Of a stretch of DNA of 64,000 bases, positions 6,001 to 52,213 are shown piece after piece (the stretch's first letter is position 1; each line of letters opens with the position of its first letter). The DNA lies in the NCBI GenBank assembly GCA_035549715.1, contig DASZQJ010000092.1, positions 2,735 through 66,734 on the forward strand, in the 5' to 3' direction. Source of the DNA: Burkholderiales bacterium. Its GTDB lineage: Bacteria; Pseudomonadota; Gammaproteobacteria; Burkholderiales; JACQAP01. The position numbers and the translations under genes were made by a program. The notes under the pieces were generated by a model. The model was given only the letters and a program-made list of their open reading frames with translations. It was not told the origin of the DNA and did no database searches.

Positions 6001-6450
6001 GCCAACACTTCGATCCGCACCTTCGAGGACCTTTCCAAGGTCCAGATCGGCGCGGGTGCGAACCTGTACAGCGTCGGCGACATCAACATCTCGGCCCGCG
6101 GGCAGGGCGACGTGGCGGCCACCGTCGAGGCGGAAGCCTACGGCGTGGGCACCTACACCGGCGCCCTGGCGGAAGCCATCATCACCCCGGACAACACCAT
6201 CGAGATCCTGGGGGATGGCTCGAACACCAACAGCACGGCGACCGACACGGTCATCCGCGCCCGCGGGGACGTGAACCTGTCGACCGGCACGGACACCGAC
6301 TTCAACCGCGACGCGTATCGCATCGACGCGCGCAGCGACACCTTCGCCGGCAGTGCGATCCCCATCGACGACGTCAATTCGACCACGTACCTGCTGACGG
6401 ACAACACCATCACGACGGCGGCGGGCTCGCGCATCGAATCCGCCGGCACC
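1..6450 (+). other. Beta-helix-like rung region of the giant protein (Gly/Ala/Val-rich units with the recurring pattern T-x-A-[YF]-IG ... V-x-V-x-A)
   Basis: Visible periodic pattern, e.g. TTAYIDSGVTATVNGDIDVSA, TRAFIGDDAG, TEAFIGNGAIVSG, TQAYIGQGAQINK, TSAFVADGATVNA, TQAFIGNADINQ. It resembles filamentous haemagglutinin/leukotoxin-type adhesin repeats (from memory, not searched). Confidence 0.5.
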
Positions 6451-15400: not shown

Positions 15401-18400
15401 ACGACGTGTTCACCATCGACTTCGACCGGCAGCAAGGCCCGGTCGGCGGCAATGACACGATCATCGGCGGCGAGGACGGCATCGGCAACATCATGCTGGG
15501 CGGCGGCGGCAACGACATCCTGCGCGGCGGCTCCGGCAACGACGTCATCCTGGGCGACGGCGGCTACGTCTACCGCAATGCCGCCTCGATCGTGACCCGC
15601 GTCGAGACCCGGTCCCCGGGCATCGGCGGCGTGGACGACATCGAAGGTGGCGCCGGCACGGACGTGATCATGGGCGGCGCCATGGGCGACACGATCAATG
15701 CGCCCTCCGGTGGCAAGATCATCCTGGGCGACAACGGCGTGGCGGTCCTCGACGGCGACAACCGTGACGTCTACAGCACCGACTACGACATCGGCGGCGA
15801 CGACGAGATCCGTGGCGGTGAGGACGGCCTGGGCAACATCATCATCGGCGGCGCCGGCAACGACACCAAGCTGTTCGGCGGCTCCGGCGACGACGTGATC
15901 CTGGGCGACAACGGCTACGTGCAGCGCGCGGCCGACGGCACGCTGATCCAGGTGCGCACCATCGCCCCGGGCATCGGCGGCGCCGACATCATCGAAGGCG
16001 GCGCGGGCACGGACGTGATCATGGGCGGCGCGATGGGCGACAAGATCACCGCGCCTTCCGGCGGCAAGATCATCCTGGGCGACAATGGCGTGGCCAACTT
16101 CGCCGGCGACGATCGCGACGTCTACTCGACCGATCCCGACATCGGCGGGGCGGACGAGATCATCGGCGGCGCCGATGGCGTGGGCAACATCATCATCGGC
16201 GGCGCGGACAGCGACACCAAGCTGTTCGGCGGCTCCGGCGACGACGTGATCCTGGGTGACAGCGGCTATGTGCAGCGTGCGGCCGACAAGTCGCTGGTCA
16301 AGGTCTACACCATCGCCCCGGGCGTGGGTGGCAAGGACGTGATCGAGGGCGGCGCCGGGACCGACGTCATCATGGGTGGTGCCGACGACGACAGGATCAC
16401 CGCCCCGACCGGCGGCAAGATCATCCTGGGCGACAACGGGGTGGCGAACTTTGCCGGCCCGGACCGCGACGTCTACTCCACGGACGAGGACATCGGCGGC
16501 GTCGACCTGATCATCGGCGGTGCCGACGGGGTGGGCAACATCCTGATCGGCGGCGCCAAGGGCGACACCATCAGCGGCGGCACGGGCGATGACGTCATCC
16601 TGGGCGACAGCGGCTATGTCCGCCGCGACGCGACCCGCAAGCTCGTGGAAGTGCACACGACGGCCCCGGCCATCGGCGGCGCGGACCACATCGAGGGCGG
16701 TGCCGGCTTCGACATCATCATGGGCGGCGCGGACGGCGACTTCATCAATGCGCCCACCGGCGGCAAGATCATCCTGGGCGACAACGGCCAGGCAAACCTC
16801 GCCGGCCCGGATCGCAATGTGTTCTCCACGGACGAAGCGATCGGCGGCGTCGACATCATCGTCGGCGGCAAGACGGGCGAGGGCAACATCATCATCGGCG
16901 GCGCAATGGGCGACGAGATCTCCGCGGGCACGGGAGACGACGTCATCCTTGGCGACAGCGGCCGCGTGGTGCGCCGGGCCGACGAGACCCTGGTGCGCGT
17001 CGAGACGACCGCCCCGGGCATCGGCGGGGCGGACAACATCCAGGCCGACGACGGCTTCGACGTGGTCTTCGGCGGCGCCGACGGCGACAACATCCAGGCG
17101 GGCCTCGACGCCAGCCGCGACGTGGTCGTGGGCGACAATGGCTACGCGGTGTTTGACGCCGGCGAGGTGCTCACCGAGATCCGCAGCACGGACGAGAACA
17201 TCGGCGGCGACGACAACATCCTCGTCGGCGACGGTGACGACTTCGTGATCGGCGGCATCGGCAGCGACTACATCAACATGGACCGCGCCACCGGCCTGCC
17301 GATCGGCAGCGACAACGGCAAGGACACGATCATCGGCGACAACGGCTACGCCCGCTTCGACTCCGTCGGCGGCAAGAGCCTGATCCGGGAGATCCGCACC
17401 ACCGCACCGCAGTACGGCGACCGCGACTTCATCTTCGCGGGCAACGGCCAGGACGTGGTGCTGGGCGGCAGCGGCGGGGACTTCATCGACGCGGGCATCG
17501 ACGGCAGCCGCGACATCGTGCTGGGCGACAATGGGGAGGCGTTCTTCAGCCCGACCGAGGTGCTGCTCACCATCCGCACCACGGACCCGACTTTCGGGGG
17601 CGACGACGACATCCGCACCGGCGACGGCGCGGACATCGTGCTGGGCGGTGCTGGCAACGACCTCATCCTGGCGAGCGGGGCGACCGGCTTCCAGGACGCA
17701 CGCGACCTGATCGCCCAGGGCAAGTACAACCAGCTGGATCCGGGTGATGCCGTGCGCGACATCGTGCTCGGCGACAACGGCGAAGCCAACTTCAACGCGG
17801 CCGGCGTGCTGCAGAACGTGAAATCCACCGATACCACGATCGGCGGCGATGACACCATCGTCACCGGCCGCGGCGACGACATCGTGATCGCCGGCATGGG
17901 CAGCGACAAGGTGCTGGCCGATGGCGGCGACGAGGTCCCGGACATGGTCATCGGCGACAGCGGCTACGCGACCTTCGACGGCAGCGCGGCCTTCCTGCCG
18001 GGCGAGGACGAGAAGATCCTGAGCTTCAATTTCACGGGTGCCGACAAGGGCGTGCTGACCGGCGTGGCCGGTGCCGGCGCCGCCCGGGCGGGCAACTGGA
18101 ACAACCTCAACGGCGGCGGCTATCGCGTCTACGGCGACGATGCGGGCGAAATCCTGTACTTCGACGACGGCTCGATTGCCCCCGGCATCGGCATCCAGTG
18201 GGGCGCGGACCTCGATTCGACGTCCAGGCACGACCCGAACAAGCTGCACCTGGAGGACCACCACCAGATCAACCCGGGTTCCAACCAGGACAAGACGCTG
18301 TTCGACGGCTACCTGACGTCCAACTCCAACGACACCGTGGGCGTGGACATCAGCGGCCTCAGCAGCCACTTCAAGTCCTACGACGTCTATGTCTACCTGG

Positions 18401-21400
18401 ACATGGACGACAGTGACAGCAAGTCCGGCACGTCCGTGCGCAGCATCGACGGCAACGGCCTCAAGTACTACCTGAACGACCCGGATGGCAACACGTTCAC
18501 GGGCACGTATGTCGAGGTGACGTCGACCACCGCCAGCGGCGCCCAGAAGGGCAACTACGTGGTGTTCCGGAACGTGACTTCGGACACGTTCAAGATCCGC
18601 ATCGACGACATCGACCCGAGGAACCAGGGCAACAAGCCCGGCGTCACGGGCGTGCAGGTGGTGGGCAGGAGCAACCCGATCGACCGCATCGAATCCATCG
18701 ATTCGGCCTCGGGCGGTGACGACATCATCCTCACGGGGGGTGGAGACGACATCGTGTTCGGCGGCGCCGGCAACGACATCATCAAGACGGCCGGCAACGC
18801 GGCCTACGGTGCCATCGACAACGACATCGTGGCGGGCGACGACGCGCGGGCGACGTTCATGAACGGCGAGTTGCGCAGCCTCGTCACGCTGGATGCCGAG
18901 ACCAATGCCAACGGCCCGGCCGGACGCTTCAATGACACGATCTGGACCGGCAACGGCGACGACGTGGTCATCGGCGGCAACGGCTCCGATTTCATCAATA
19001 CCACGGTGACGGCCGACGATTACGACTACGGCAACGTGTCGGTGATCAGCATGAAGTTCAACAGCCAGGTCGACCAGGGCGGCGTCACGGGCACCGCGGG
19101 TGCGGTGGCGGCCGACAACTGGAACAACCTGGCGAGCGCCGGCAAGGGCGCACAGGCCGGTCTGCTCGATGACGACGGCGGTTCGACGGGCGTCAAGGTC
19201 ACCTGGGGCGAGGAGCAGTACAACTACAAGACCAAGTCCTACGAGCTCACGGCGACGACCGACCGCGACACGCACGACCTGATCGACCCGTCTTCGCAGA
19301 ACGAACGCCTGTTCGAAAGCTCCATCGAGCGCGACGACTGCACGCTGGGTGTGGACCTGACGGGCCTGGGCTCGCTGGGAACCTACGACGTCTACGTGTA
19401 CTTCGACAGCGACGAGGCCGACAACCGCAACCAGGGCACCGCCGCGATGAAGATCACCGCGGGCGGCGTCAGCTACTACGTCAACGACCCGAAGGGCAAC
19501 ACCTTCGACGGGGAGTTCGTCGACGCGACGTCGACTGACAGGTACGCGCCGGGCGTGGGCAACTATGTCGTGTTCCGCGGCCTCACGCTCGACCAGCTCA
19601 AGATCCGCATCTCTGGAGACGAGTCGCTCGGGCGCTTTGCGGACGGACGGCCCACCATTTCCGGGATCCAGATCGTGTCCGGGGCCGACCGCGCCGGCGT
19701 CATCGACCAGCCGGCCGGCAAGATCGGTGGCGATTTCGACAACGACGTGGTGCTGGGCGACAACGCCGCCATCAACTGGTTCCATGGCCAGATGTACGAG
19801 GTCACGGCCACGAACCCGGTGGCGACGGTCCCCGATTCCGGCTTCCAGGCCGACACGATCGAAACGGGCGTGGGGGCGGACGTCGTCATCGGCGGCAACG
19901 GCGACGACAAGATCAAGGGTGGCGAGGGCAACGACCTGCTGCTCGGGGACAATGCCCACCTGCTGATGGACAACTCCCTGCTGCTCGGCCTGGGCGACTT
20001 CGACGAGGACAACTGGGACGACGGGCACCACCACCACGACCACTGGCACCACCATGACCACTGGCACCACCATCACTCGCACTTCAACCCCTACGACATC
20101 ATGGGGGTCGAACTGCTCAACGAGGACATCGGCGGCAACGATACGATCGAAGGCGGCCAGGACGACGACCTGATGTACGGCCAGGCCGGCGCCGACACCT
20201 TCGTGTTCGCGGGCTCGGAGCTGGGCGAGGATGCGGTGGTCGAGGCCGGCACGGACTTCCACGGCGATGACCATTGGGACTGGAACTTCGACTTCTGGCA
20301 CTGGGGCTATGACGCCCATGGCCATGACCATCATGACCACGATTACCACGGTCCCAACGACGTGGGTGACACGCTCGACTTCAGCCAGTTCAGCGGCCCG
20401 ATCAGCGTCGACCTGGGTGTTTCGCACGAGCAGACCGTCAGCGCGGGCAACCTCAAGCTGACGCTGTTCCACGGCGATGCCATCGAGAACGTGATCGGCA
20501 GTGAGTTCGCCGACTGGATCGACGGCAACGACCGCGACAACGTCATCCTCGGCCTGGGCGGCAATGACAGGATCAACGGCCAGGACGGCTACGACTTCAT
20601 CGACGGCGGCGACGGCGCCGATGAGATCAATGGCGGCGGTTACGGCAAGGGCCACTACGGGCACCAGTACTGCCACAGCTACTTCTACCTGTACGGCCAC
20701 TATTGGTATCGCGACGGGGATGAATCCGACGTGCTGCTGGGCGGCGCAGGCAATGACAAGATCTGGGGCGCCGGCGGCAACGACACCATCGAGGGTGGCG
20801 ACGGCGACGACCTGATCTATGGCAACGGCGGCGCCGACAGGATGTACGGCGGGGCCGGCAACGACAGGATGTACGGCAACGCCAGCGACGACTGGATGGA
20901 CGGCGGCGACGGCAACGACTGGCTGTATGGCGATGGCGGCAACGACACGCTCTACGGCGGTGCCGGCAACGATGTCATCTACGGCCAGAGCGGCAACGAC
21001 TGGATGGACGGCGGCGACGGCAACGACACGCTTTGGGCGGACGGCGGCAACGACGTCCTGCTCGGCGGTGCCGGCGACGACCTGCTGTACGGCCAGAGCG
21101 GCGACGACCTCATGGACGGCGGCGACGGCAACGACCAGCTGTGGGGCGACACCGGCCGCGACATCCTCAAGGGCGGCAGCGGCAACGACAAGCTCTACGG
21201 CGGCCGCGACGACGACGTGCTCAACGGCGGTGATGGCGACGACTACCTCGACGGCGAAGGCGATGACGACATCCTGCTCGGCGGTGCCGGAAACGACACC
21301 CTGAAGGGCAACGACGGTGACGACGTGATCCTCGGCCAGGACGGCAACGACACGGTCGACGGCGGCTGCGGCCGTGACCTCGTCGACGGCGGCGATGGCG

Positions 21401-22755: not shown

Positions 22756-22880
22756 CGCGACCGGCGCGTCCCGCGGCACACATGGCCCCAGGCGAACCGC
22801 GCACGCCGTGCCCGGTCAGCCGATTCGTGTTCTAATTGCGCCTGTTTGCACGGGCAAACCGTCTGATTTCAGGAGAGAAA

Positions 22881-23189
22881 ATGGCTGAGTCCAAGAACCA
22901 GGAAGTGAAGGGCGCCGAAGGCACCAAGATCAAGTGGGATGACTCGAACATGAAGAGCGCCTACGCCAACGTCTGCAACGTCACCAGCACGCGCGAGGAA
23001 GTCGTGATGCTGTTCGGCATCAACCAGGCCTGGAACCGCGGCCAGAAGGAAGTCACGATCCAGCTCACGGACCGGATCATCATCAGCCCGTACGCGGCCA
23101 AGCGCCTGGCCATGCTGCTGGACGGCGTGATGAAGGAGTACGAATCCCGCTTCGGCGCATTGCCGGTCGAACCGGTCGCCGCCAAGTAG
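22881..23189 (+). CDS. Small DUF3467-like protein (102 aa)
   Basis: ATG 22881 lies 4 nt after AGGAGAG (22871-22877). The core YANVCNVTSTREEVVMLFGINQAW...IISPYAAKRLAMLL matches my recollection of DUF3467. The track's earlier start at 22836 has no RBS. Confidence 0.75.
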   Translation: MAESKNQEVKGAEGTKIKWDDSNMKSAYANVCNVTSTREEVVMLFGINQAWNRGQKEVTIQLTDRIIISPYAAKRLAMLLDGVMKEYESRFGALPVEPVAAK

Positions 23190-23223: not shown

Positions 23224-24807
23224 TCAGGCGTCCTGCGCCCGCAGGAAGGCCTGGGCGCCGAGGTTCACCAGGACCTTTTCCAGGGCGGAGCCCAGCAGTT
23301 CGCGTACCGCTTTCTCGTCGGTGACCGGCGCGCCGCCGGCATCGGCCTTCAGCAGGAATTCCCTCGAGTTCACCGCCGCCATCATCGAATCCAGGATCTG
23401 GCCCGCATCGCGGCTGCCGTCGAGCAGCTTCAGGGTCTGGCGATGGATTTCGTCGAGGTTGATGGCCTCGCCCCGCAGGTTCGTCGCCTGGTAGCCCTGG
23501 ATGGCCTGCCAGCGCGCCAGGGGGCTGGTCGTGGGCCTGGCCGGGGCCACCCGGGTCAGGGCGAGGGGTGCCACGCGCATTTCCACCACTCCGGCGCCGA
23601 TCGCCGTCAGGATCTCGCTGGCCAGGAACTCGTCCACCGGCTCGTCGGCGGAAACCTTCTCCAGCGCGAGCTCTTCCCGGCACTTGTGCAGCAGCTCCTG
23701 GTAGCTGATCGGCACCGGCCATTCCCGCTGCAGCACCCGCATCGCCAGCTTGGTGACGGGCGCCTTGCAGACGATGCGCGAGCCGCTCGGCGTCTGGTAG
23801 GTCACCCGCACGGCGGGATCCAGCTGCGCGGGCTCCACGGGTGTGGCCGCCGAGGCCAGCCAGAACTGCCGCACCACGCCCGAGTCGATGGCGCGGTTCA
23901 GGCGGATGCCGTTGTGGCAAATGAGGGTCTTGCGGAAATAGCGGCAGCGCACGAAGTCCATGTACTGCTCCATGCGGACGATGTCATGTGCGCCCAGCTC
24001 GTGCAGCGTCTTGGCGGTATCGGCCGAGAAATTGGTCGAGATCATGGACGAGAACTCGGCGTCCCCGAGGTACTGCAGTCCGTTCACTGCCAGGCGCTGG
24101 GCGAACTCGTGGAAGTACATCGGCTGGTTGTGCTCTTCCAGGTATTCGTGGTGCAGGTAGTAGTCCGTCATCTTGTCGAGCTGCTTGAGCTCGGACTGGA
24201 GCAGGCGCTGGTAGGGCGTGTCGGATTTCGAAGTCGCCTGCGCGGCGAAGGCCACCAGGGACTTGGCCTGCTCCAGGCGCGTGTTGGCGTCGGCGAACTG
24301 GGCGCCGCGGTAGAACATCATGTCGCGCACGATGCCGCGGATGTGCCAGCCGGGGTAGACGTTGTAGCTGATGTAGGCCACGCCGTCGGGCGCGAGGTGG
24401 CGCTGCACGATCTCCAGCATCTTGGCCTGCACGCGCGGCGGCACCCACGAGTAGACGCCGTGGCTGATGATGTAATCGAACTGCCCGAGGCTGTCGTCGA
24501 CGTCGAGGATGTCCATGTGGCGCAGCTGGACGTTCTTGATGCCCAGGGCATGGATGGTCTTCCACCCCTCCGCGATCTGGTGCGACGAGAAATCCAGCCC
24601 CACGCACTGTGCGCCGGGGTGGATCTGCGAGATGGCCACCAGGTTGCCGCCCATGGAGCAGCCCAGCTCGAGAATCCGGGCCCCGTCGGCCGGTGGCGAT
24701 TGCAGGCCGAAGATCCTGGCGATCGCGGACAACCTCGCGGGGTGGGTTTCCGGGAAGGAAATGCTGGGGTAGGGAATGGCGTCGTAGGATTTTTGCAGGG
24801 TGTTCAT
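23224..24807 (-). CDS. Class I SAM-dependent methyltransferase with a long C-terminal 'methyltransferase regulatory' type domain (527 aa)
   Basis: The N-terminus YDAIPYPSISFPETHP and motif I ILELGCSMGGN are followed by about 300 aa typical of this two-domain family (from memory). The ORF has a clean start (CAT 24805-24807) and stop. Confidence 0.85.
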   Translation of the reverse strand: MNTLQKSYDAIPYPSISFPETHPARLSAIARIFGLQSPPADGARILELGCSMGGNLVAISQIHPGAQCVGLDFSSHQIAEGWKTIHALGIKNVQLRHMDILDVDDSLGQFDYIISHGVYSWVPPRVQAKMLEIVQRHLAPDGVAYISYNVYPGWHIRGIVRDMMFYRGAQFADANTRLEQAKSLVAFAAQATSKSDTPYQRLLQSELKQLDKMTDYYLHHEYLEEHNQPMYFHEFAQRLAVNGLQYLGDAEFSSMISTNFSADTAKTLHELGAHDIVRMEQYMDFVRCRYFRKTLICHNGIRLNRAIDSGVVRQFWLASAATPVEPAQLDPAVRVTYQTPSGSRIVCKAPVTKLAMRVLQREWPVPISYQELLHKCREELALEKVSADEPVDEFLASEILTAIGAGVVEMRVAPLALTRVAPARPTTSPLARWQAIQGYQATNLRGEAINLDEIHRQTLKLLDGSRDAGQILDSMMAAVNSREFLLKADAGGAPVTDEKAVRELLGSALEKVLVNLGAQAFLRAQDA

Positions 24808-25069: not shown

Positions 25070-26986
25070 TTGCCCATTAGCGACATGAATACGCAACCTG
25101 AGCCCCTGGACCCGCGGCCGCGTTCCCACGTCGCCGAGTTGCGCCGCACCGAACCCACGGTCGCGGACTGGCGCGCCTTTTCCGAAGCCTCCTCGCCGGA
25201 GGCCTATTGCCAGAGCTGGCTCAACCTGCAGTGCCTGATGATCCCGGGCTGCCTGGAAGGCGTGGTCGTGCTGCAGAAGCCCGGCGCCCAGGAATTCGTG
25301 CCCGCCGCATTCTGGCCCGCCGACGATCGCCGCAACCGCAGCCACCTCGCGGAAGTGACCGAGCGCACCCTGAAGGAAGGCCGCGGCGTCTTCAGCTCGC
25401 GCGAAGTGCCGTCCACGCTCGACCCGGAACGCATGCAGACGCGCTACCAGCTTGCCTACCCGGTGAAGCTCGACGGGGCGCTGCGCGGCGTGGTCACCGT
25501 GGAAATCGACCAGCGCCCGGAGAGCCAGGTCGAGGGCGTGATGCGCCAGCTGCAGTGGGGTGCCGGCTGGCTCGAGGTGATGCTGCGCCGGGGGCAATTC
25601 GACCCCGGCGAGATCGCGCGCAAGCGCCTCGCCTTCGTGGTGGAGCTGCTGTCCACCTTCCTCGAGCAGTCCAATTTCGAGGCGGCGGCCGCGGCCTGCG
25701 TGACCGAGCTCGCCGCCTTCCTCGGCTGCGACCGCGTCTCGCTGGGCGTGCTCGAGCGCCGCCGCATCCGCATGGTCGCCCTGTCCCACGCCACGCAGTT
25801 CGACCGCCACTCCAACCTGGCGCGCGCCATCGAGGCGGCGATGGAGGAGGCCGTCGACCAGCGCGAGACCATCCTCTACCCGGACGGCATGAGCGGTCGC
25901 CCCACGGTCGACCAGGCCCATGCGGCGCTGGCGACGGGCTTCGGCTCCGGGGTGGTCCTGACCCTGCCGCTCACCTCGCGCAGCCAGGTGGTGGGCGCGC
26001 TGTGCATGGAGCGGGCGGGCAACTATCGCTTCGAGCGGCCCGCGCTCGAACTGGCCGAAGGCGTGGCGGCCCTGATCGGTCCGCTCGCGGACATGCAGCG
26101 CGGCAACGAGCGCGCGCTGCCGGCGCACCTGGCCACCAGGGCGAGCGGCTTCTGGGAACGCCTCGCGGGGCCGCGCAATGCCGGGCTCAAGGTCGTCCTC
26201 CTGCTGGTCCTGGCGGTCATCGCCTACGTCAGCATCGCCAGCGGCACCTACCGGATCACCGCCGAGACCAACGTCGAGGGTTCGGTGCAGCGTGTGGTGG
26301 CCGCGCCCTTCCAGGGCTTCATCGCCGAGGCGAAGGTGCGGCCGGGCGACACGGTGAAGGCGGGCGACCTGGTCGCGCGCCTCGACGACCGCGACCTGCG
26401 CCTCGAGCGCCTCAAGACGCTCGCGCAGCGCGAGCAGTATTCCAAGCAGTACCGCGAGGCGATGGCCAAGGGCGATCGCGCGCAGATCAAGATCCTCGGC
26501 ACCCTGGTGGAGCAGCAGGACGCGCAGGTGCAGCTGCTCGACGAGCAGCTGTCGCGCACGACCATCGCAGCCCCGTTCGACGGCGTCGTGGTGAGCGGCG
26601 ACCTGAGCCAGCAGCTCGGGGCGCCGGTGGAACGCGGCCAGGTGCTGTTCGAGATCGCGCCCCTCGACAGCTACCGCGTGGTCCTGCAGGTGAACGAGCG
26701 CGACATCGCCGACGTTGCGGTCGGCCAGGCCGGCAAGCTGACGCTGTCCTCGCTGCCGGGGGAGAAGATCGACTTTCGCGTCGCCAAGATCACGCCCGTG
26801 AACACGCCCAAGGAGGGCCGCAACTTTTTCCGCGTCGAGGCGGCCCCGCTGGGAGGGATCGACCGCGTGCGCCCCGGCATGGAAGGGGTGGGCAAGATCG
26901 AGGTCGACGAGCGCCGCCTGATCTGGATCTGGACCCGCGACCTCGTGAACTGGGCCCGCCTGTGGGTCTGGTCGTGGATGCCCTGA
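25070..26986 (+). CDS. GAF-like sensor region fused to a HlyD-type membrane fusion protein (periplasmic adaptor)
   Basis: The track start is TTG 25070 and the first ATG is 25085. The ~370-aa cytoplasmic N-terminal region is GAF-like (...CVTELAAFLGCDRVSLGVLERRRIRMVALSHA...). One TM segment follows (GLKVVLLLVLAVIAYVSIA), then barrel-sandwich halves flanking a short coiled coil (VVAAPFQGFIAEAKVRPGDTVKAGDLVARLDD ... TTIAAPFDGVVVSGD). Confidence 0.8.
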   Translation: MPISDMNTQPEPLDPRPRSHVAELRRTEPTVADWRAFSEASSPEAYCQSWLNLQCLMIPGCLEGVVVLQKPGAQEFVPAAFWPADDRRNRSHLAEVTERTLKEGRGVFSSREVPSTLDPERMQTRYQLAYPVKLDGALRGVVTVEIDQRPESQVEGVMRQLQWGAGWLEVMLRRGQFDPGEIARKRLAFVVELLSTFLEQSNFEAAAAACVTELAAFLGCDRVSLGVLERRRIRMVALSHATQFDRHSNLARAIEAAMEEAVDQRETILYPDGMSGRPTVDQAHAALATGFGSGVVLTLPLTSRSQVVGALCMERAGNYRFERPALELAEGVAALIGPLADMQRGNERALPAHLATRASGFWERLAGPRNAGLKVVLLLVLAVIAYVSIASGTYRITAETNVEGSVQRVVAAPFQGFIAEAKVRPGDTVKAGDLVARLDDRDLRLERLKTLAQREQYSKQYREAMAKGDRAQIKILGTLVEQQDAQVQLLDEQLSRTTIAAPFDGVVVSGDLSQQLGAPVERGQVLFEIAPLDSYRVVLQVNERDIADVAVGQAGKLTLSSLPGEKIDFRVAKITPVNTPKEGRNFFRVEAAPLGGIDRVRPGMEGVGKIEVDERRLIWIWTRDLVNWARLWVWSWMP

Positions 26987-26993: not shown

Positions 26994-29144
26994 ATGGCGG
27001 CCAACGACATCTTCAGTGCGTCCTGGCACCGCGTCAGCGGCCTGAGGCCGCGCCTGCGCGGCCACGCGCAGATGTCGCGGCACTTCTACCGCGGCCAGCT
27101 CTGGTACGTGCTGCAGGACCATTCCTCGCGACGCGTGCACCGGTTTGCCCCGACGGCCTATACGGTGATCGGCCTCATGGACGGCCACCGCACCGTCGGG
27201 GAGATCTGGGACGCGGCCTGCTCGAAGCTGGGCGACGATGCGCCCACCCAGGAGGAGATCATCCGCCTGCTCGCCCAGCTGCACGGCGCCGACATCCTGC
27301 AGTGCGAGATCCCGCCGGACGTGGACGAGATGCTGCGGCGGCGGGACAAGCTGCGCAGCATGAAGCTGATCGCACTGCTGATGAGTCCGCTGTCGATGAA
27401 GTTCCCGCTGTTCGACCCGGAACGCTTCCTCAATGCGACCGTCGGCCTCGTGCGGCCGCTGTTCACCTGGTACGGGGCGCTGCTCTGGCTGGCGATCGTG
27501 GCCGGCGCGGTGGTGGAGGCGGGTCTGCACTGGCCCGAGCTCACCAAGGACATCACCGACCGCGCGCTCGCCCCGCAGAACCTGCTGCTGATCTGGCTCA
27601 CGTTCCCGGTGCTCAAGGCCTTCCACGAGTTCGGCCACGCCTACGCGGTCAAGCGCTGGGGCGGGGAGGTGCACGAGATGGGCATCATGCTGCTGGTGTT
27701 CATGCCGGTGCCCTACGTGGATGCCTCCGCCGCGTCGGCCTTCCGCGAGAAGTACCCGCGCGTCGTGGTGGGCTCGGCCGGAATGCTGGTGGAGGCGGTG
27801 GTGGCCGCGCTGGCGGTGTTCGTATGGGTGAACGTGGAGCCGGGCCTGGTGCGCTCGGTCGCCTACAACGTGATCCTCATCGCCGGCGTCTCGACCCTGG
27901 TCTTCAACGCCAACCCGCTGCTGCGCTTCGACGGCTATTACATCTTTGGCGACCTCATCGAGATCCCCAACCTGCGGGCCCGCGCCAACCGCTATTTCAT
28001 GTACCTGGTCGAGCGCCACCTGCTCGGCATGGCCGAGAGCCAGGAGCCCGAAGGAACGCCGTCGGAAAAGCGCTGGATGCTGGCCTTCGCCATCAGCTCG
28101 TTCATCTACCGGATGTTCGTCACCTTCGCCATCGTCATGCTGGTGGCCGGCAAGTACTTCATCTTCGGCGTGATCCTCGCCGGCTTCGCCCTGGTGGGCG
28201 CGCTGGTGCTGCCGCTCGTGAAGGGCATCGCCTTCCTGCTCTACAGCCCGCGCCTGCGCCGCATGCGCCTGCGCGCGGCGGTGAGCACCACCCTTTTCGT
28301 GGGTGTACTCGGCGCGCTGGTCTTCCTGGTGCCGGCGCCCATGTGGACCCGGGCCGAAGGGGTGATCTGGGTCCCCGAGCAGGCGATCGTGCGCCCGGGC
28401 ACCGAGGGCTTCGTCGCCGAGGTGGTGGCGCGCCCGAACTCGCAGGTCAGGCCGGGCGATCCCATCCTGAAGCTCGACGAGCCGCTGCTGTCGGCGCACA
28501 TCCGGGTGCTGCGGGCGAAGGTCGAGCAGTACGAGGCGCAGTACCGTTCCGAGCGCTACGACGAGCACGGGCAGGTGCGCGCGGAACTGACCCTGGAGAC
28601 GCTGCGCTCCACGCAGGCCGAGCTCGCGCGCGCGCTCGAAAAGGCCGCGGCGCTGGAAGTCCGGGCGCCCGTGGAAGGCCGCCTGGTGCTGGCGCGCGCC
28701 GACGACCTGCCGGCGCGCTTCGTGCGCCAGGGCCAGGACGTGGCCTACATCGTCGACGGCAAGCAGATGACCGCGCGCGTGGTGGTCCCGCAGCAGGACA
28801 TCGACCTGGTGCGCAGCCGCACCCGCGCGATCGAAGTGCGCCTCACGGAGGACGTCGGCGTGGTGCTGCCGGCCAGGGTCCGGCGCGAAGTCCCGGCGGC
28901 GACGGCCGAGCTGCCCAACCTCGCGCTCGCGATGGACGGCGGCGGCAAGGTGGCGCTGGATCCGCGCGAGAAGACCCCGCGGGCGCTGCAGAAGTTCTTC
29001 GACTTCGAGCTGAGCCTGCCGGTGCGCGAGAACGTGCACATCGGCAGCCGCATCTACGTCCGCTTCGACCATGGCTCCGAGCCGCTGGCCTTCCAGTGGT
29101 ACCGCAGCCTGCGCCAGGTCTTCCTCAAGCAGCTGAATGTCTGA
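26994..29144 (+). CDS. Site-2-protease (peptidase M50) domain fused to a HlyD-type membrane fusion domain (716 aa)
   Basis: HEFGH at 27624-27638 and the second S2P motif NPLLRFDG at 27912-27935 sit within a polytopic hydrophobic region. The C-terminal half reads ...IVRPGTEGFVAEVVARPNSQVRPGDPILKLDE..coiled coil..EVRAPVEGRLVL. The start is 7 nt after the upstream stop. Confidence 0.85.
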   Translation: MAANDIFSASWHRVSGLRPRLRGHAQMSRHFYRGQLWYVLQDHSSRRVHRFAPTAYTVIGLMDGHRTVGEIWDAACSKLGDDAPTQEEIIRLLAQLHGADILQCEIPPDVDEMLRRRDKLRSMKLIALLMSPLSMKFPLFDPERFLNATVGLVRPLFTWYGALLWLAIVAGAVVEAGLHWPELTKDITDRALAPQNLLLIWLTFPVLKAFHEFGHAYAVKRWGGEVHEMGIMLLVFMPVPYVDASAASAFREKYPRVVVGSAGMLVEAVVAALAVFVWVNVEPGLVRSVAYNVILIAGVSTLVFNANPLLRFDGYYIFGDLIEIPNLRARANRYFMYLVERHLLGMAESQEPEGTPSEKRWMLAFAISSFIYRMFVTFAIVMLVAGKYFIFGVILAGFALVGALVLPLVKGIAFLLYSPRLRRMRLRAAVSTTLFVGVLGALVFLVPAPMWTRAEGVIWVPEQAIVRPGTEGFVAEVVARPNSQVRPGDPILKLDEPLLSAHIRVLRAKVEQYEAQYRSERYDEHGQVRAELTLETLRSTQAELARALEKAAALEVRAPVEGRLVLARADDLPARFVRQGQDVAYIVDGKQMTARVVVPQQDIDLVRSRTRAIEVRLTEDVGVVLPARVRREVPAATAELPNLALAMDGGGKVALDPREKTPRALQKFFDFELSLPVRENVHIGSRIYVRFDHGSEPLAFQWYRSLRQVFLKQLNV

Positions 29145-31071
29145 CCGCGGACTGGCCGCGTCGGCCGACGCCTACCCCGAGCGCGAGGAGCGGCGCCCGT
29201 CCATGGTCGAAAAGGTGCTGCTCTCGCTCGCCTACCTGCCCCAGTCGCTGCTGGCGCGGGCGCCGTCCCCGTCGACCGTCGCGGGCGTCCAGGCCCGGGC
29301 GAAACTGCCGGCCGACTTCGCCGCGCGGGTGCGCGACCTGCGCTACGAGTTGCGCCGCACCGGGCTCGGCAGCGCCGGCCTGGAGCAGGCGGTCGCGCTG
29401 GCCGCGGCGCAGGTGCACGCGCAACTCGGCATCAAGCCCGGCCCGGGGCCGATTTGCGCCGCGCTGGCGCTGGCCCGGGGCGGCCGCTGTGTCGAGGCCA
29501 CCGACGTGGGTGACTGGCCGCTGGCCGTGGCGCTGGCCGCCGTGGCGGTGGCGCTGGCCGGCATCCCGGTGCACGTCATCACGGTGACCGCACATCTGGC
29601 GCGGCGCGACGCCGAGGCGATGCGCCCCCTGTACGCCGCGTTCGGCCTGTCGGTGGGCGTGGTCGAGGAAACCACGCAGGAGGCGGACCGGCGCCAGGCC
29701 TACGGCGCCGACGTCGCCTACTGCGTGCATCGCGAGGTGGCGCTCGATTACCTGCGCGATCGCCTGGTGCTCAAGGGCCGCCCGCGCGCGCTGCGACTGC
29801 GCACCGAGGCGCTCACGTCCCCGAACCCGCGCGCCCAGCACCTGATGCTGCGCGGCCTGCAGTGCGCCATCGTTTGCGAGGGGGAAACCATCCTGGTCGA
29901 CGCCGCCCAGACCCCGATCACGATTTCCGGGCATGCCAGCGCATCGCAGGAGGCCGCCTGGCTCGTCCAGGGCCTGCAGATGGCGCGGGCGCTCGTGCCC
30001 GGCGCCGAATACGAGATCCCCGAAATCGGTCTGGCGCGGCTGACCGACGCGGGCCGCGCCAGGCTGGCGCAGATGGCCCGCCAGCTGCCCGGGGTCTGGC
30101 AGGGGGCGCGCCGGCGGGAGGAGATCGTGCAACTCGCGCTGGTGGCCGAGCGCATGCTGGAAAAGGACCGGCACTACGAAGTGGCGGGCGAAAGCCTGAC
30201 GGTGGCCGAGGAGGTCCTGCGCCAGCACGCCGGCGACGCGGGCAACGCCAGGCTGCTGCGGCTGCTGCTCGAGAGCAAGGAGAACTGCGCCCTGAGCGGG
30301 GCGCGGGAGACGCTGGCGCGCATCGGCTACCAGCGCTTCTTCCGCCGCTACCTGCGGCTGTCGGCGCTGAGCCTGGGGGCGCGGCAGGTGAGCCGCGAGC
30401 TGTGGGGGATCTACCGGCTGCGGCGCGTCGTCGCGGCCCCGGGCGAGCCGGCGCTGGGCGTACGGCTGCCGGATCGCTTCTATGCCGACAAGGCGAGCGG
30501 CGCAGAAGCGGTGCTGGCACGGGTTCGCGAGTTGCGCGCCCACGGGCACCCGGTGCTGGTCGTCACGCGCACGCCACAGGCCGCGGCGGCCTGGTCACAG
30601 CTGCTGGAAACCGGCGGCGTGCCCAACCAGCGCCTGGCGGGCAGCCAGGACGCGAAGGAGGAGGAAGCCTTCGGGCAGGTCTGCGCGCCGGGAAGGGTCA
30701 CGGTCGCACCGTATTTCGCCGCGCGCGGCAAGCGCGCGGAGGTCATGGCGGCCTCCGCGGACAAGGGCGGCTTGCGGATCATCCAGGTGCAGCCGCTCGC
30801 CTATGGCCGCCAGCTGCAGTATCTGGTGGAGCGGGGCATCCCGCGCGGGTCCAGCGGCAGCGTGCAGCGCATGGTGGTGATGGACGACGACCTGGTGGGC
30901 ATCTACGTGCCGGGGTGGTGGGTGCGCTGGCGCGGGATGCCGCTGCGCCGGGCGATGCTGCGCTACTGCCAGTGGGCTGCCGCGCGCGACCACGCCCAGG
31001 CGCGCAGCGAATTGCTGCGGGTGGAGGATTACCTCGGGGACGTGTTCGCCTTCTCGGGCCGGCAGGGCTGA
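29137..31071 (+). CDS. SecA-like protein (NBD1-PPXD-NBD2 only, 644 aa) with degenerate ATPase motifs
   Basis: Colinear with E. coli SecA as I remember it: [31 protein letters not shown] vs [46 protein letters not shown] vs [30 protein letters not shown]...[20 protein letters not shown] vs GGLHIIGTERHESRR...GSSRFYLSMEDALMRIF. The Walker A equivalent is ATDVGDWP (29494-29523 region) instead of MRTGEGKT. The DEVD equivalent is CEGE (29875-29886). ATG 29137 overlaps the upstream stop (29142-29144). Confidence 0.8.
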   Translation: [644 protein letters not shown]

Positions 31072-31075: not shown

Positions 31076-31885
31076 TCAGAGCAGGCGGACCCGGCACTTC
31101 ACCCCCGCCGGGATGCGGTTGCCGGGATTGGGAAGCTGCAGGCGCACGCCGAACGTGCCGCTCGCCGCGTCGATGACGCGATCCACCACCTTCACCGAAG
31201 CCTCGTGCCGGCCCCCGATGGGCTGCTCCGGCGTGACCTGGGCGCGCATGCCGACCTTGATCCTGCCGTAGAGCGTCACGGGCAGGATCACTTCCACGTT
31301 GAGCGGGTCGATTTCCGCCAGCTTGGCGATGGGCTGCTTCACGTCGTTGGTGGTGGCGAACTCGCCGGGCTTCTGCTGCACGTCGACCACCACGCCGGTG
31401 AGGGGGCTGCGGATCGTGCGCAGCGCCAGCACTTCCTCGCTGCGCTTGACCTCCAGCTCCGCCAGCTTCTGGTTCTCGCGCGCCTGGCGCAGCTGCTCGC
31501 TCGCGAACTGGTACTCCGCCACGGCCTCGTCCTTGGCATTCACGGACACGAAGTTCTGCTTGTACAGCTCCTCGGCGCGGACCATCTTCTTCTGCGCGAG
31601 GTCCAGGCGCGCCTCGGCGGCCTTGATCTCGCCCTGCATGTTGGCGCGCGATTTGGCCAGGTCGAGCGCCGCGCGCTCCGGGCCGGATTCGAGCGTGGCG
31701 ATGACCTGGCCGCGCTTGATGGTCTCCCCGCGCTGGATGAGCACCGACTCGATCACGGCTTCCACCGGGCTGCGGATCTCGATCTGCTGGCGGGCCTCGA
31801 TCAGGCAGTCGTACTCGTCGGCGGCGGAGGCTGCGCCGGCTGCCGCCAGCGCCAGGGCGCAGAGCGGACGGAAGGAGGGAGTCAT
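31076..31885 (-). CDS. Short periplasmic adaptor (RND/HlyD-type MFP, 269 aa) with a signal peptide
   Basis: The likely start is ATG at 31885 (MTPSFRPLCALALAAAGAASA signal); the track start at 32017 is less likely. It has a lipoyl-like half (IRSPVEAVIESVLIQRGETIKRGQVIATLE), a coiled coil, a second half (IRSPLTGVVVDVQQKPGE) and a beta-barrel. It is convergent with the SecA-like gene, with 4 nt between the stop codons. Confidence 0.8.
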   Translation of the reverse strand: MTPSFRPLCALALAAAGAASAADEYDCLIEARQQIEIRSPVEAVIESVLIQRGETIKRGQVIATLESGPERAALDLAKSRANMQGEIKAAEARLDLAQKKMVRAEELYKQNFVSVNAKDEAVAEYQFASEQLRQARENQKLAELEVKRSEEVLALRTIRSPLTGVVVDVQQKPGEFATTNDVKQPIAKLAEIDPLNVEVILPVTLYGRIKVGMRAQVTPEQPIGGRHEASVKVVDRVIDAASGTFGVRLQLPNPGNRIPAGVKCRVRLL

Positions 31886-32316
31886 CGGCGAAGGCCCAGG
31901 CGGGAAATCCTTGAACAGCGCGGGATTGTATCCAATTGCGGGGTCCCGGGGGGGATGGCCGCCAGGGCCGTCCGGCAGCCTCGCCGCTGCCCATAAGGCC
32001 TTGTTAATTGGAGGCAAGTTTGGGGGTCAGCAGCGCACGGGGCGGGCCCGGGCGGTGGGTGGCGCGGCGCACTATAAGACCAAACCTGACAAGCGGCTTT
32101 ACTTTTGTCTGCGAAAATGTAATAAAAACAATGTAGAGTACGTCGTTCTTAATGGGGAATGCGCAAACCGCCGCCGGGGGTGGCGGGGCGCAGGGCGAGA
32201 AAAACCGAACCATGACAACAATGGGGCCGCACCGCCAGGCGCACCGCTGGCGGGCCGATGATGCTTCGCGCCGCGATTTCGCGCGGCACCGCGCCAGCCA
32301 GGGGCGGGACTGACCC

Positions 32317-34053
32317 ATGCGCACCGGACCGTTCGAACGCTCCCCGCGCGACCGCCGCCGCGGCGACAGCATGCAGGAAAGCGAGGCCCGCTTCCGCGCG
32401 CTGGTGCAGAATTCCTTCGACATCATCACCATCCACGACGAGAGCGGCCTCACCCATTACGAATCGCCGGCTGCCTCGCGCATCCTCGGCTACCCGCCGG
32501 GGTCGCTGATCGGCAAGACGCCGTTCGAGACCGTGCATCCCAAGGACGTGGCCCGCGCGCGCGACGCCTTCGGCGCCGTGCTCAAGGGCGAAGTCTCGCC
32601 GCTGCCGACGGTGCTGCGCTTTCGCCATGCCGACGGCTCCTGGATCCACCTCGAGGTGCTGGGCAACAACCTGCTCGACCATCCCGGCATCCGCGGCATC
32701 GTGCTCACCTCGCGCGACGTCAGCGAGCGCAAGCGCGCCGAGCAGCGTGCCCAGTACCTCGCCAACTACGACGTGCTCACCGGCCTGCCGAACCGCTTCC
32801 TCGTGCAGGACCGCCTGACCCAGGCCGTGGCCCAGGCCCACCGCAACAAGCTGCGCGTGGGCCTGATGCACATCGACCTCGATCGCTTCAAGCTGGTCAA
32901 CGAGACCCTCGGGCACTACGTGGGCGATGCGCTGCTCAAGCAGGCGGCCGACCGCATCCGCAAGCTGGTGCGCGAAGGCGACACCGTGGCGCGGGTGGGG
33001 GGCGACGAGTTCACCATCGTCTATCCGAACGTGAGCAACCTGCCGGCGCTGTCGATCACCGCCGAACGCCTGCTCGAGGACCTGGCGCGGCCCTTCCCGA
33101 GCGAGGGGCAGGACCTGTTCGTCTCGGCCTCCCTGGGCATCAGCCTGTATCCCGACGACGCGGGCAGCGTCGACGAGCTCATCAAGCACGCCGACGCGGC
33201 GATGTACAGCGCCAAGCACCTGGGCCGCAACAACTACCAGTTCTTCACGACGGACCTCAATCGCGAAGTGCAGGAGCGCATGATGATCGAGGCGGGCCTG
33301 CGCACCGCCATCCACCGCAACGAGCTGTCGCTGGTGTTCCAGCCCAAGATCGACCTCGCCACCCGGCGGGTGTTCGGCGCCGAGGCCCTGCTGCGCTGGA
33401 ACCATCCCAAGCTGGGCCTGATCTCGCCGGCGCGCTTCGTGCCCGTGGCGGAGGAGGCGGGCCTGGTCGGGGCGATCGGGGAATGGGTGCTGCGCACGGC
33501 CTGCAGGCAGATCCGCCAGTGGCAGGACGCGGGCTTCCCCATGCAGGTCGCGGTCAACGTTTCCGCGCGCCAGTTCCAGCAGTACGACGTCGCGGACCTG
33601 GTGCTGGGCATCATGCGCGAGTCCGGCGTGCGCGCCGAGCACCTCGAGGTGGAGCTCACCGAGAGCGCGGTCATGAACGACGCCGAGAGCTCCATCGTGA
33701 CGCTGGAGCGCCTGGCCGATTCCGGCGTGCAGATCGCCATCGACGATTTCGGCACCGGCTACTCGAGCCTGTCGTACCTGAAGCGCCTGCCGCTCGACGT
33801 GCTCAAGATCGACCAGTCGTTCGTGCGCGACATCTCTTCCGACCCGAACGATGCGGCAATCGTGCGCGCCATCATCACGCTCGCGCGCAGCCTGGGCATC
33901 AAGGTGATCGCGGAAGGGGTGGAGAACGAGGCCCAGCTCGCCTTCCTCAACGCCTACGGGTGCCAGTACGCGCAGGGCTACCTGTTCGGCAAGCCGCTCA
34001 CCTCGGCGGAGTTCGAGCAGCTGCTCGGCGCGACCTCCGCCGCCGGCGCCTGA
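32317..34053 (+). CDS. PAS-GGDEF-EAL signalling protein (c-di-GMP turnover)
   Basis: PAS (SEARFRALVQNSFDIITIHD), GGDEF (RVGGDEFTIV) and EAL (GAEALLRW ... DDFGTGYSSLSYL ... KIDQSFV). The start is ATG 32317 or ATG 32371. Confidence 0.9.
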   Translation: MRTGPFERSPRDRRRGDSMQESEARFRALVQNSFDIITIHDESGLTHYESPAASRILGYPPGSLIGKTPFETVHPKDVARARDAFGAVLKGEVSPLPTVLRFRHADGSWIHLEVLGNNLLDHPGIRGIVLTSRDVSERKRAEQRAQYLANYDVLTGLPNRFLVQDRLTQAVAQAHRNKLRVGLMHIDLDRFKLVNETLGHYVGDALLKQAADRIRKLVREGDTVARVGGDEFTIVYPNVSNLPALSITAERLLEDLARPFPSEGQDLFVSASLGISLYPDDAGSVDELIKHADAAMYSAKHLGRNNYQFFTTDLNREVQERMMIEAGLRTAIHRNELSLVFQPKIDLATRRVFGAEALLRWNHPKLGLISPARFVPVAEEAGLVGAIGEWVLRTACRQIRQWQDAGFPMQVAVNVSARQFQQYDVADLVLGIMRESGVRAEHLEVELTESAVMNDAESSIVTLERLADSGVQIAIDDFGTGYSSLSYLKRLPLDVLKIDQSFVRDISSDPNDAAIVRAIITLARSLGIKVIAEGVENEAQLAFLNAYGCQYAQGYLFGKPLTSAEFEQLLGATSAAGA

Positions 34054-41301: not shown

Positions 41302-41443
41302 AGGGCCGTGAATACCGTGAATATCGTGAATAACGTGAATATCGAGGAAGCAGGTTTGACGCGACGCCTTCGCCCGCATCGGGCAGTCGTCATTGCGACA
41401 TTCACGGCATTCACGTTATTCACGATATTCACGGTATTCACGG
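41283..41443. repeat. Inverted repeat made of 9-bp tandem units (CGTGAATAN x4-7 versus NTATTCACG x5), with perfect 35-bp arms at 41306-41340 and 41409-41443 and a 68-bp spacer
   Basis: The left arm CCGTGAATACCGTGAATATCGTGAATAACGTGAAT is the exact reverse complement of ATTCACGTTATTCACGATATTCACGGTATTCACGG. Degenerate extra units overlap the last yfhM codons. The right arm encodes the (X-F-T)x5 segment of the PbpC membrane anchor. Confidence 0.95.
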
Positions 41444-43663: not shown

Positions 43664-43870
43664 ATGGAAACCAACGTGGGCACTACCGATCGTGTCGTCC
43701 GGATCGTGGCGGGGCTGGTCCTGCTCGGCGCGGTCTTCCTGCTCGATTCACCGCAACGCTGGCTGGGCCTGATCGGCATCGTGCCGCTCGCCACGGGCCT
43801 GGTGCGCTGGTGCCCGGCCTATGCGCTGTTCGGCATCGACACCTGCGGCCGCCCGGGCAAGGCCGGCTGA
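43664..43870 (+). CDS. DUF2892 (YgaP C-terminal-like) small membrane protein
   Basis: RBS GGAGGA precedes ATG 43664. METNVGTTDRVVRIVAGLVLLGA...GIVPLATGLVRWCPAYALFGIDTC is the typical DUF2892 pattern. Confidence 0.8.
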   Translation: METNVGTTDRVVRIVAGLVLLGAVFLLDSPQRWLGLIGIVPLATGLVRWCPAYALFGIDTCGRPGKAG

Positions 43871-43887
43871 GGGTCCGGCTGCAATCC

Positions 43888-46350: not shown

Positions 46351-46355
46351 GGCCC

Positions 46356-46520
46356 ATGGAGATCCTCTACCTGCTCGTGCCCCTGTCCGTCGCGCTCGCG
46401 TGGCTCATCGGCGCTGCCTTCTGGTGGAGCGTGAAAAGCGGCCAGTTCGACGACCTCGAGGGACCATCGCACCGCATCCTCGACGACGACGAAACCGAGG
46501 CGGACCGCCCCCCGCCTTGA
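46356..46520 (+). CDS. ccoS: cbb3 oxidase maturation protein CcoS/FixS (54 aa)
   Basis: MEILYLLVPLSVALAWLIGAAFWWSVKSGQFDDLEGPSHRILDDD is the canonical CcoS sequence pattern. In the track it is hidden in the tail of a long spurious ORF. Confidence 0.9.
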   Translation: MEILYLLVPLSVALAWLIGAAFWWSVKSGQFDDLEGPSHRILDDDETEADRPPP

Positions 46521-46530
46521 GGCAGGTCAA
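46517..46530 (+). promoter_or_regulatory. FNR-like box TTGAG-GCAG-GTCAA (one mismatch)
   Basis: The left half-site contains the ccoS stop codon (46518-20). It lies 56 nt upstream of the tandem-USP ATG. Confidence 0.45.
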
Positions 46531-46585
46531 GCAAGCGGCCGCGGCGTGGGCGAGAATGTCCATGACCCTACGGAGGACGGCGGAC

Positions 46586-47458: not shown

Positions 47459-47492
47459 GGCGGGCGCGCGGCAGGCGCGCCGGGCCCGCCGG

Positions 47493-51579: not shown

Positions 51580-51588
51580 GGACAGACC

Positions 51589-52209: not shown

Positions 52210-52213
52210 GGAC

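Follow-up and report, generated by a model that had tools for sequence, protein, structure and literature searches.

A secondary SecA_DEAD protein without ATPase motifs, probably a structural or docking subunit, in an M50-HlyD module of Burkholderiales

The 64-kb stretch of DNA analyzed here (64,000 nucleotides, hereafter the window; positions 2,735 to 66,734 of the forward strand of contig DASZQJ010000092.1, assembly GCA_035549715.1) comes from a Burkholderiales bacterium and includes a module in which the gene for a SecA-like protein is flanked by genes for HlyD-type proteins. The SecA-like gene (29137..31071, plus strand) encodes a 644-aa protein that Pfam, NCBIfam and phmmer comparisons, together with a table of motifs, characterize as a member of the secondary SecA_DEAD family with all superfamily 2 (SF2)/SecA ATPase motifs replaced. 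The reading frame of 644 codons is unbroken, and the GC content at third codon positions, 0.93, is that of the other real genes of the window (overall GC content 69.6%). The gene that precedes it (26994..29144, plus strand) encodes a fusion of a PqqD (RRE-like) domain, an M50-like membrane metalloprotease and a HlyD domain, with six predicted transmembrane segments and the M50 motifs HEFGH (nt 27624-27638) and NPLLRFDG (nt 27912-27935, the latter read from the sequence). Further upstream is the gene for a membrane-fusion protein of GAF-transmembrane-HlyD architecture (25070..26986, plus strand; Pfam, NCBIfam and transmembrane scan), for which the mechanical open reading frame (ORF) begins at TTG 25070, the ATG at 25085 (MNTQPEP...) being the more plausible start. 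A small HlyD adaptor with barrel-sandwich and lipoyl domains is encoded convergently with the SecA-like gene (31076..32017, minus strand); the transmembrane scan calls no segment in it, and its N-terminus appears by eye to be hydrophobic and signal-peptide-like. As a first-pass annotation of the window had pointed out, the start of the SecA-like gene (ATG, 29137-29139) overlaps the stop of the PqqD-M50-HlyD gene (TGA, 29142-29144); the shared letters, ATGTCTGA, amount to 8 nt, and the overlap of this length is also kept in five other loci of the degenerate clade to which the window gene belongs. The SecA-like gene is accordingly arranged as a gene predicted to be translationally coupled to the M50-HlyD gene.

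The relationship of the 644-aa protein to SecA is clear over its two nucleotide-binding domains (NBD1 and NBD2). Pfam detects SecA_DEAD at residues 59-423 (E = 1.5e-48) and P-loop_SecA, that is, NBD2, at residues 445-532 (E = 1.8e-9), and phmmer aligns residues 97-587 with residues 64-533 of the Bacillus subtilis SecA (E = 1.6e-40). The NBD2 region spans aa 433-598 (30433..30930, plus strand), with motifs V and VI degenerate. Between the two domains, at aa 263-392 (29923..30312, plus strand), the preprotein cross-linking domain (PPXD, PF01043) yields a match below the threshold (E = 0.0088, 17 bits against a cutoff of 23.5), and its core, DE.TGR...DRSW..GLHQ, is replaced; to judge from the sequence, the PPXD is present by position only and is strongly diverged. 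The first ~58 and the last ~45 residues match nothing in Pfam, and the protein ends ~45-57 residues past the last SecA-aligned position (587-600). Pfam finds no SecA_SW (wing/scaffold) domain, and neither the helical scaffold nor the wing, the two-helix finger or the C-terminal linker of canonical SecA is found by Pfam, NCBIfam or phmmer. The first-pass annotation had described an alignment with the SecA motor along the whole length and the absence of the scaffold, wing and C-terminal domains. The latter statement is borne out, whereas the former holds for NBD1 and NBD2 but not for the PPXD, which is recognizable only by position, nor for the two ends, which are specific to the family.

Compared with the canonical SecA (B. 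subtilis, PDB 1M6N/3DL8), then, the window protein is homologous over NBD1, the PPXD position and NBD2, but it lacks the scaffold, wing, two-helix finger, C-terminal linker and ATPase motifs, and has family-specific N- and C-terminal segments and an insertion in NBD1. Its scores with the NCBIfam SecA and SecA2 models, 131-185 bits, are far under the cutoffs of 725-1493: the canonical SecA equivalogs (TIGR00963 and NF009538) give 176-185 bits against 800-862, and the SecA2 models (TIGR04221, TIGR03714, TIGR04397 and NF012136) give 131-170 bits against 725-1100. With the mycobacterial and Gram-positive SecA2, the protein shares the status of a second SecA-type protein in the genome and a reduced C-terminal region, but it differs in genomic context and falls far short of the respective model cutoffs (170 against 725 and 154 against 930 bits). 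SecA2 keeps the ATPase motifs and most of the scaffold.

The ATPase motifs were compared in the alignment with the B. subtilis SecA and in an alignment of 121 sequences (the window protein and 120 homologues), and both support the substitutions that had been listed in the first-pass annotation, at the positions given there. In the degenerate Walker A (aa 120-131; 29494..29529, plus strand), which stands in place of EMETGEGKTLTA, EM.TGEGKT has become EATDVGDWP (GEGKT replaced by DVGDW), so that a Trp occupies the position of the catalytic Lys. Motif II (29872..29886, plus strand) reads VCEGE instead of VDEAD, that is, DEVD/DEAD is replaced by CEGE at aa 247-250 (nt 29875-29886). Motif III (30364..30381, plus strand) reads ALSLGA instead of GMTGTA and is preceded by a conserved 13-residue stem. 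Within NBD2, motif V (30706..30744, plus strand) has changed from TNMAGRGTD to APYFAARGK, and in motif VI (30826..30858, plus strand) GRxGRQGD is replaced. A canonical Walker A or DExD elsewhere in the protein would have spoken against this assessment, but a pattern scan of the whole sequence detected no GxxxxGK[ST], GK[ST] or DExD/H. In lineages of uncultured Burkholderiales, replacement affects the Q motif and each of motifs I, Ia, Ib, II, III, V and VI, as well as the core of the PPXD.

A search of a large protein collection identified 677 relatives of the SecA-like protein; the best homologues are all shortened members of the family, and almost every one of the top 120 has a length of 600-680 aa. 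That the protein ends after NBD2, as the first-pass annotation had correctly noticed, is therefore a family trait rather than a lesion, and is not peculiar to the window gene. Catalytic competence, by contrast, divides these relatives. Ninety homologues at 33-43% identity (P0031-P0120) keep the ATPase motifs almost without exception, whereas the 30 closest clusters at 47-99% identity (P0001-P0030) are all degenerate, contrary to what would be expected if the substitutions were confined to the window gene and its closest homologues were intact. These 30 clusters form a graded series: in P0021-P0030, Walker A is lost (mostly with Arg at the Lys position), as are motifs III, V and VI, and most members keep DEAD; in P0001-P0020, including the window gene, DEAD is lost as well (xEAE or xDAE) and Trp occupies the Lys position.

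Two scans of the collection yielded 160 loci (clusters were counted at 90% identity). Of the related loci, about 150, spread over several phyla, have the full set of ATPase motifs, and seven are degenerate (L001, L002, L036, L081, L082, L083 and L100). The L036 protein is only 33% identical to the window protein, and a search with it retrieved a second, larger degenerate group that has diverged further, with ~73 clusters (P0121-P0193). Its proteins span roughly 430-650 aa, the majority falling between 570 and 650, and none has Walker A or motifs III, V or VI; DExD persists in only a few. This group has a 4-residue deletion in motif VI and is without the 10-residue deletion in the C-terminal tail that marks the window clade. 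Both groups are found in uncultured Burkholderiales at one chromosomal position, the second-group genes at 10001-11887 of L036 and 10001-11935 of L161 occupying the same Burkholderiales locus. Altogether, more than 100 distinct 90%-identity clusters have no motifs.

One alternative is that the protein is still a nucleotide-dependent motor, with an active site of a non-canonical kind. NBD1 and NBD2 remain recognizable as RecA-like folds, two residues of the motifs persist, namely the motif II Glu (E248) and the leading Arg of motif VI (R566), and some members of P0021-P0030 combine Arg or Lys at the Walker Lys position with DEAD. In the window protein, however, the P-loop glycines, the Lys/Thr pair, the motif II Asp, motifs III and V, and the GRQGD arginine fingers are gone, with no substitute motif found by pattern scan. 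Moreover, the replacements differ by sub-clade (W, R or K at the Lys position; xEAE, DEAD or EDAD at motif II), and this variation argues against a conserved new catalytic site. We consider continued motor activity very improbable.

The gene neighborhood identifies the system to which the dead protein belongs. Kamneva et al. (2015, PMC4452313) described a secondary SecA_DEAD family in a locus resembling a type I secretion system (T1SS), with GAF-HlyD, PqqD-M50-HlyD, SecA_DEAD and HlyD genes. They placed this family near the actinobacterial SecA2 and proposed that SecA_DEAD is a functional ATPase that replaces the ABC transporter, with the M50-like membrane protein as the inner-membrane pore (PMC4452313). 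The window protein has the same SecA_DEAD architecture without wing and scaffold, a similar length (644 aa, compared with 630-670 aa for family members) and the same Peptidase_M50/HlyD, GAF/HlyD and HlyD neighbors (OEP is sometimes present in the family), and it clusters with members from Proteobacteria, Planctomycetota and Nitrospirota. A neighbor-joining tree constructed without a canonical SecA outgroup puts it inside the Burkholderiales clade of the family with 88% bootstrap support. On these sequence features, the window gene is assigned to the secondary SecA_DEAD family. The difference is that the authors assumed ATPase activity, whereas the window clade appears to have lost every ATPase motif; their paper (PMC4452313) mentions neither Walker motifs nor inactive variants nor RTX cargo. 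Our literature search found no experimental work on the secondary SecA_DEAD/M50-HlyD system, and a large, selected, catalytically dead clade within the family appears to be unreported.

Conservation of the module was counted over 64 loci with long flanks, in tblastn searches with the window's own proteins. PqqD-M50-HlyD (directly upstream of the SecA-like gene) and GAF-HlyD (also upstream) are each encoded in 62 of the 64 loci; 49 have an adjacent small HlyD gene, 42 a DUF3467 gene, and in 23-25 an RTX-type giant gene resembling that of the window lies upstream. The published description of the locus is extended here by the link to DUF3467 and giant RTX genes. Taxonomically, the loci are spread over Burkholderiales, other Beta-, Gamma- and Alphaproteobacteria, Desulfobacterota, Myxococcota, Nitrospirota and Planctomycetota; Desulfogranum mediterraneum DSM 13871, Roseateles albus and Terrihabitans rhizophilus are among the cultured carriers. 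Clustering of all ORFs of the first 80 loci revealed no other widely conserved neighbor and no ABC exporter. In Desulfobacterota, proteins judged by eye to be TolC/OEP-like follow the small HlyD (for example, L023 5469-6878 and L022 13083-14177; two clusters, of 8 and 6 loci), in agreement with the OEP proteins noted in PMC4452313.

In the window, the presumed cargo of the module is a giant RTX ORF (1..22683, plus strand) that continues beyond the 5' edge of the window and codes for more than 7,540 aa. Its final third carries ~20 stretches of RTX Ca-binding repeats, and a matrixin-like domain (HExxHxxGxxH) lies close to the C-terminus; the first 4,000 residues have no Pfam match. The giant ORF is followed by a gene for a small DUF3467 protein (22878..23189, plus strand; E = 3.1e-23). 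To the right of the module lies a PAS-GGDEF-EAL gene (32317..34053, plus strand), a conserved neighbor in Burkholderiales that hints at control by cyclic di-GMP (c-di-GMP). The annotated genes of the 64-kb window include no ABC exporter and no gene for a TolC-family outer-membrane factor, so that, of the three components of a type I secretion system (ABC transporter, membrane-fusion protein and TolC-family outer-membrane factor), only membrane-fusion proteins, three of the HlyD type, are encoded there. None of the five module proteins matches a defense model of PADLOC-DB.

The same gene content could be read differently, namely, as a regulated intramembrane-proteolysis or signaling device rather than an RTX exporter, with the SecA-like shell presenting substrate to the protease without ATP. 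The M50 motifs HEFGH and NPLLRFDG are intact (the HExxH also in the degenerate loci), the protease polypeptide includes a PqqD/RRE-like peptide-binding domain, the partner protein carries a GAF domain, and PAS-GGDEF-EAL is the conserved neighbor in Burkholderiales. Nevertheless, the presence of three HlyD-type periplasmic adaptors, the TolC/OEP genes that adjoin some loci (PMC4452313; also by eye) and the recurrence of giant RTX genes upstream are better explained by an envelope-spanning conduit, and we regard a signaling protease as quite unlikely.

The flanking genes also relate the dead genes to intact ones. L161 has the same order as the window, with genes for a 9,639-aa giant, DUF3467, PKMT methyltransferase, GAF-HlyD, PqqD-M50-HlyD, SecA_DEAD, HlyD, PAS-GGDEF-EAL and FMN reductase. 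The intact Burkholderiales loci L007, L011, L017 and L028 have GGDEF-EAL proteins 80-83% identical to that of the window, and the DUF3467 proteins of L017 and L028 are 84-87% identical; across all Burkholderiales loci compared, most of them intact, the ranges are 75-83% and 70-88%, respectively. Given these shared flanks, the dead genes are positional orthologues of the intact ones and not extra copies. The trees disagree on whether the dead state arose once. In a neighbor-joining tree of the SecA-like proteins, the window and L036 types are united with 100% bootstrap as the sister group to the intact Burkholderiales copies, whereas in a tree of the partners (M50-HlyD and GAF-HlyD) the window type is basal and L036 groups with the intact loci, also with 100% support. 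Long-branch attraction could explain the joint grouping in the SecA-like tree. The two types share no indels, but in the less-derived members of both, the Walker Lys is replaced by Arg and motif III contains an Asp. The dead state may stem from a single ancient loss, after which the types diverged, or from two parallel losses.

The positional orthology bears on the possibility that the dead protein works together with an active ATPase (the canonical SecA, an intact secondary SecA_DEAD protein or an ABC exporter encoded elsewhere), as its regulator or as its partner in a heteromer; it would then be the inactive subunit of a dimer or would gate by competition. SecA dimerizes, and pseudo-enzyme partners of active paralogues are common. 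The RTX repeats of the neighboring giant are a hallmark of substrates of ABC-type T1SS, and an ATPase-type exporter, if one is needed, would have to be encoded outside the 64-kb window, where none is found. However, a degenerate gene at the chromosomal position of the intact one is an orthologue rather than an additional copy. Furthermore, the metagenome-assembled genomes (MAGs) of L001, L002 and L036 have one locus each among the best 80 matches of the one-genome-per-species scan, well inside the range of which the intact Burkholderiales copies score; this is a weak argument, the MAGs being incomplete and 60 lower-ranked matches lying beyond. We regard an active partner as conceivable but on balance unlikely.

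The dead gene is not a pseudogene and evolves under purifying selection. In Nei-Gojobori estimates of the ratio of nonsynonymous to synonymous substitution rates (dN/dS), the closest degenerate pair, L081 and L082, for which synonymous sites are unsaturated (SecA-like dS = 0.12), gave 0.13 for the SecA-like gene and 0.08 for M50-HlyD; more distant pairs, with synonymous sites partly saturated, gave 0.20-0.45 and 0.08-0.25, respectively. The alignment of the 30-sequence clade has 94 invariant columns and a mean column identity of 67%. Values of dN/dS well below 1, along with the invariant columns, indicate that the dead gene is maintained by selection. At the same time, constraint is clearly relaxed relative to the intact state, although not lost. 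Among 1,953 pairs of intact loci, the identity of the SecA-like proteins tracks that of M50-HlyD (r = 0.90, residual standard deviation 2.7 points), whereas pairs with a degenerate copy fall 6-10 residual standard deviations below this line (z = -6 to -10). Between the window and L001, for example, the SecA-like proteins are 57% identical against an expected 74%, with 87% for GAF-HlyD and 78% for M50-HlyD.

These data make it highly improbable that the gene is a decaying, non-functional remnant kept open by chance or by constraints of translational coupling or polarity. Loss of all catalytic motifs, evolution much faster than that of the neighbors and a dN/dS about twice that of the adjacent gene are what decay would produce. 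Against it stand the more than 100 motif-less 90%-identity clusters, nearly all of ~570-647 aa (the members of the window clade on complete contigs are all full length), the 94 invariant columns, dN/dS estimates of 0.13-0.45 and the emergence of new conserved segments specific to the clade. The proposal of the first-pass annotation that this is a pseudo-ATPase is thus supported by motif loss across the clade and by purifying selection (dN/dS 0.13, from one unsaturated pair).

The new segments emerged from a domain-wise comparison of conservation in 37 degenerate and 188 intact sequences. The N-terminal family-specific segment (aa 1-58; 29137..29310, plus strand; no Pfam match), which includes MSDRG and YPER, has a conservation of 0.62 in the degenerate clade against 0.48 in intact relatives; the pattern MSDRG...YPER.ERRPS.VEK is better conserved in the degenerate proteins, and in the 30-sequence alignment M1, Y13, P14, E15, R20 and S22 are invariant. 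The 28-residue insertion in NBD1 (aa 213-240; 29773..29856, plus strand), a family-wide feature opposite a gap in the B. subtilis SecA, is nearly invariant in the degenerate clade and better conserved there than in the intact proteins. The same holds for the family-specific C-terminal tail (aa 599-644; 30931..31068, plus strand; no Pfam match), with the pattern CQW...RD...AR.ELLR.EDYLGDVLAFSG. Common to both groups are YPER, LAF.G and a 31-residue stretch pattern, whereas the positions conserved only in the intact proteins are the NBD1 and NBD2 catalytic motifs and the PPXD core. Loss of the catalytic positions combined with gain in the N-tail, insertion and C-tail is the pattern expected of a subunit retained for contacts and architecture, not for chemistry, and these three conserved non-catalytic patches are candidate interaction surfaces.

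Several further observations concern the genes around the module. A PKMT-type methyltransferase (23224..24807, minus strand; Methyltransf domains, MethyTransf_Reg and PKMT winged helix) sits between the giant RTX/DUF3467 genes and the module, has homologues in L001, L006, L017, L036 and L161, and might modify the giant protein. The PAS-GGDEF-EAL proteins are 75-83% identical across loci in which the module genes are only ~50% identical; likewise, the identity of DUF3467 reaches 84-88% in several loci where that of the HlyD partners is ~52%. Two DUF3467 copies occur in L024, and L161 has DUF3467 at 2156-2476 followed by a 373-aa protein with this domain at 2572-3693. We considered DUF3467 as a SecB-like chaperone and set this idea aside as unsupported: a PDB profile search gave only a chance-level match (E = 1.1), and hhalign aligned three columns with an E. 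coli SecB sequence. The single-sequence structure model of DUF3467 has a predicted local distance difference test score (pLDDT) of 56, too low for use. Also rejected was a 66-aa ORF upstream of GAF-HlyD in L161 as a precursor peptide bound by PqqD, given that it is not conserved beyond L161 and L162; the 263 nt upstream of GAF-HlyD in the window contain no conserved small ORF. In the remainder of the window, 35461-43584 (plus strand) encodes a bacterial alpha-2-macroglobulin (1,946 aa) followed directly by a PBP1C-type penicillin-binding protein, a known pairing unrelated to the module, and 43810-63264 (plus strand) is a run of housekeeping genes that encodes three P-type ATPases, cbb3 oxidase proteins (COX1, FixO and FixP), FixG and FixH, as well as a beta-CASP metallo-beta-lactamase-fold protein, a universal stress protein and a phosphoribosyltransferase.

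Taken as a whole, the sequence data suggest that the window gene encodes a catalytically dead secondary SecA_DEAD protein that probably serves as a non-enzymatic structural or docking subunit. Under this scenario, the protein would be the soluble cytoplasmic component of a T1SS-like envelope module, would attach from the cytoplasm to the complex of M50-HlyD and GAF-HlyD, and would be needed for assembly, gating or cargo delivery. The energy-requiring step might be dispensable or, speculatively, fed by the proton-motive force, by extracellular Ca2+-driven folding of the RTX protein or by another ATPase. A more specific version, which we consider unlikely, is that the module still exports or displays the giant RTX protein, with the SecA-like shell as a passive docking ring and no cytoplasmic ATPase behind the M50/HlyD/TolC-type conduit, for which the proton-motive force, for instance, or Ca2+-dependent RTX folding as an external ratchet would supply the drive.

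Several considerations weigh against assigning the protein such a docking role. The PPXD core is degenerate too, which speaks against a cargo clamp and favors a purely structural role. An intact second copy or a classical ABC exporter may lie elsewhere in the genome, and the faster evolution could mean drift towards gene loss in some lineages. The secretion role of even the intact module is a genomic inference (PMC4452313). The single-sequence structure prediction of the SecA-like protein has a pLDDT of 39.9, too low to map interaction surfaces. The suggestion of the first-pass annotation that the protein is kept for binding rather than for translocation accordingly stands in part: loss of the ATP motifs combined with retention of the gene fits it, but with the PPXD core degenerate, binding of preproteins is no better supported than a role as an assembly subunit.

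A degenerate enzyme domain kept in an RTX secretion apparatus has a possible functional analogue in the C39-like domain of HlyB-type T1SS, which has lost the catalytic Cys and serves as a substrate-docking platform. The analogy is limited to function, the fold and the component being unrelated; moreover, the HlyB system has an active ATPase, whereas none is evident in the window locus. The SecA_DEAD/PPXD modules of giant Omnitrophota and actinobacterial proteins (West-Roberts et al., 2023 preprint, doi 10.1101/2023.11.21.568195) likewise are without scaffold and wing, are tied to giant proteins and have been proposed to act in their export, but they are fused into the giant, in contrast to the separate, degenerate 644-aa protein of the HlyD/M50 operon in the window.

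The distribution of the secondary SecA_DEAD/M50-HlyD module is wide, covering Proteobacteria, Desulfobacterota, Planctomycetota, Nitrospirota and Myxococcota, and the module is often accompanied by giant RTX proteins. That large clades keep the module and its presumed cargo, under selection, after the loss of every ATPase motif implies that the SecA-like protein has an important ATP-independent role; judging from its sequence, the protein seems able to fulfil this role without hydrolyzing ATP. The retention of dead clades also indicates that, in these lineages at the least, the only published hypothesis, energy supply by replacement of the ABC transporter (PMC4452313), does not give the full account. 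The pairs of intact and dead orthologues at one chromosomal position constitute a natural experiment and offer an experimental handle on the module. If export without a cytoplasmic ATPase proved to be true, the module would represent a secretion route energized unlike every characterized T1SS.

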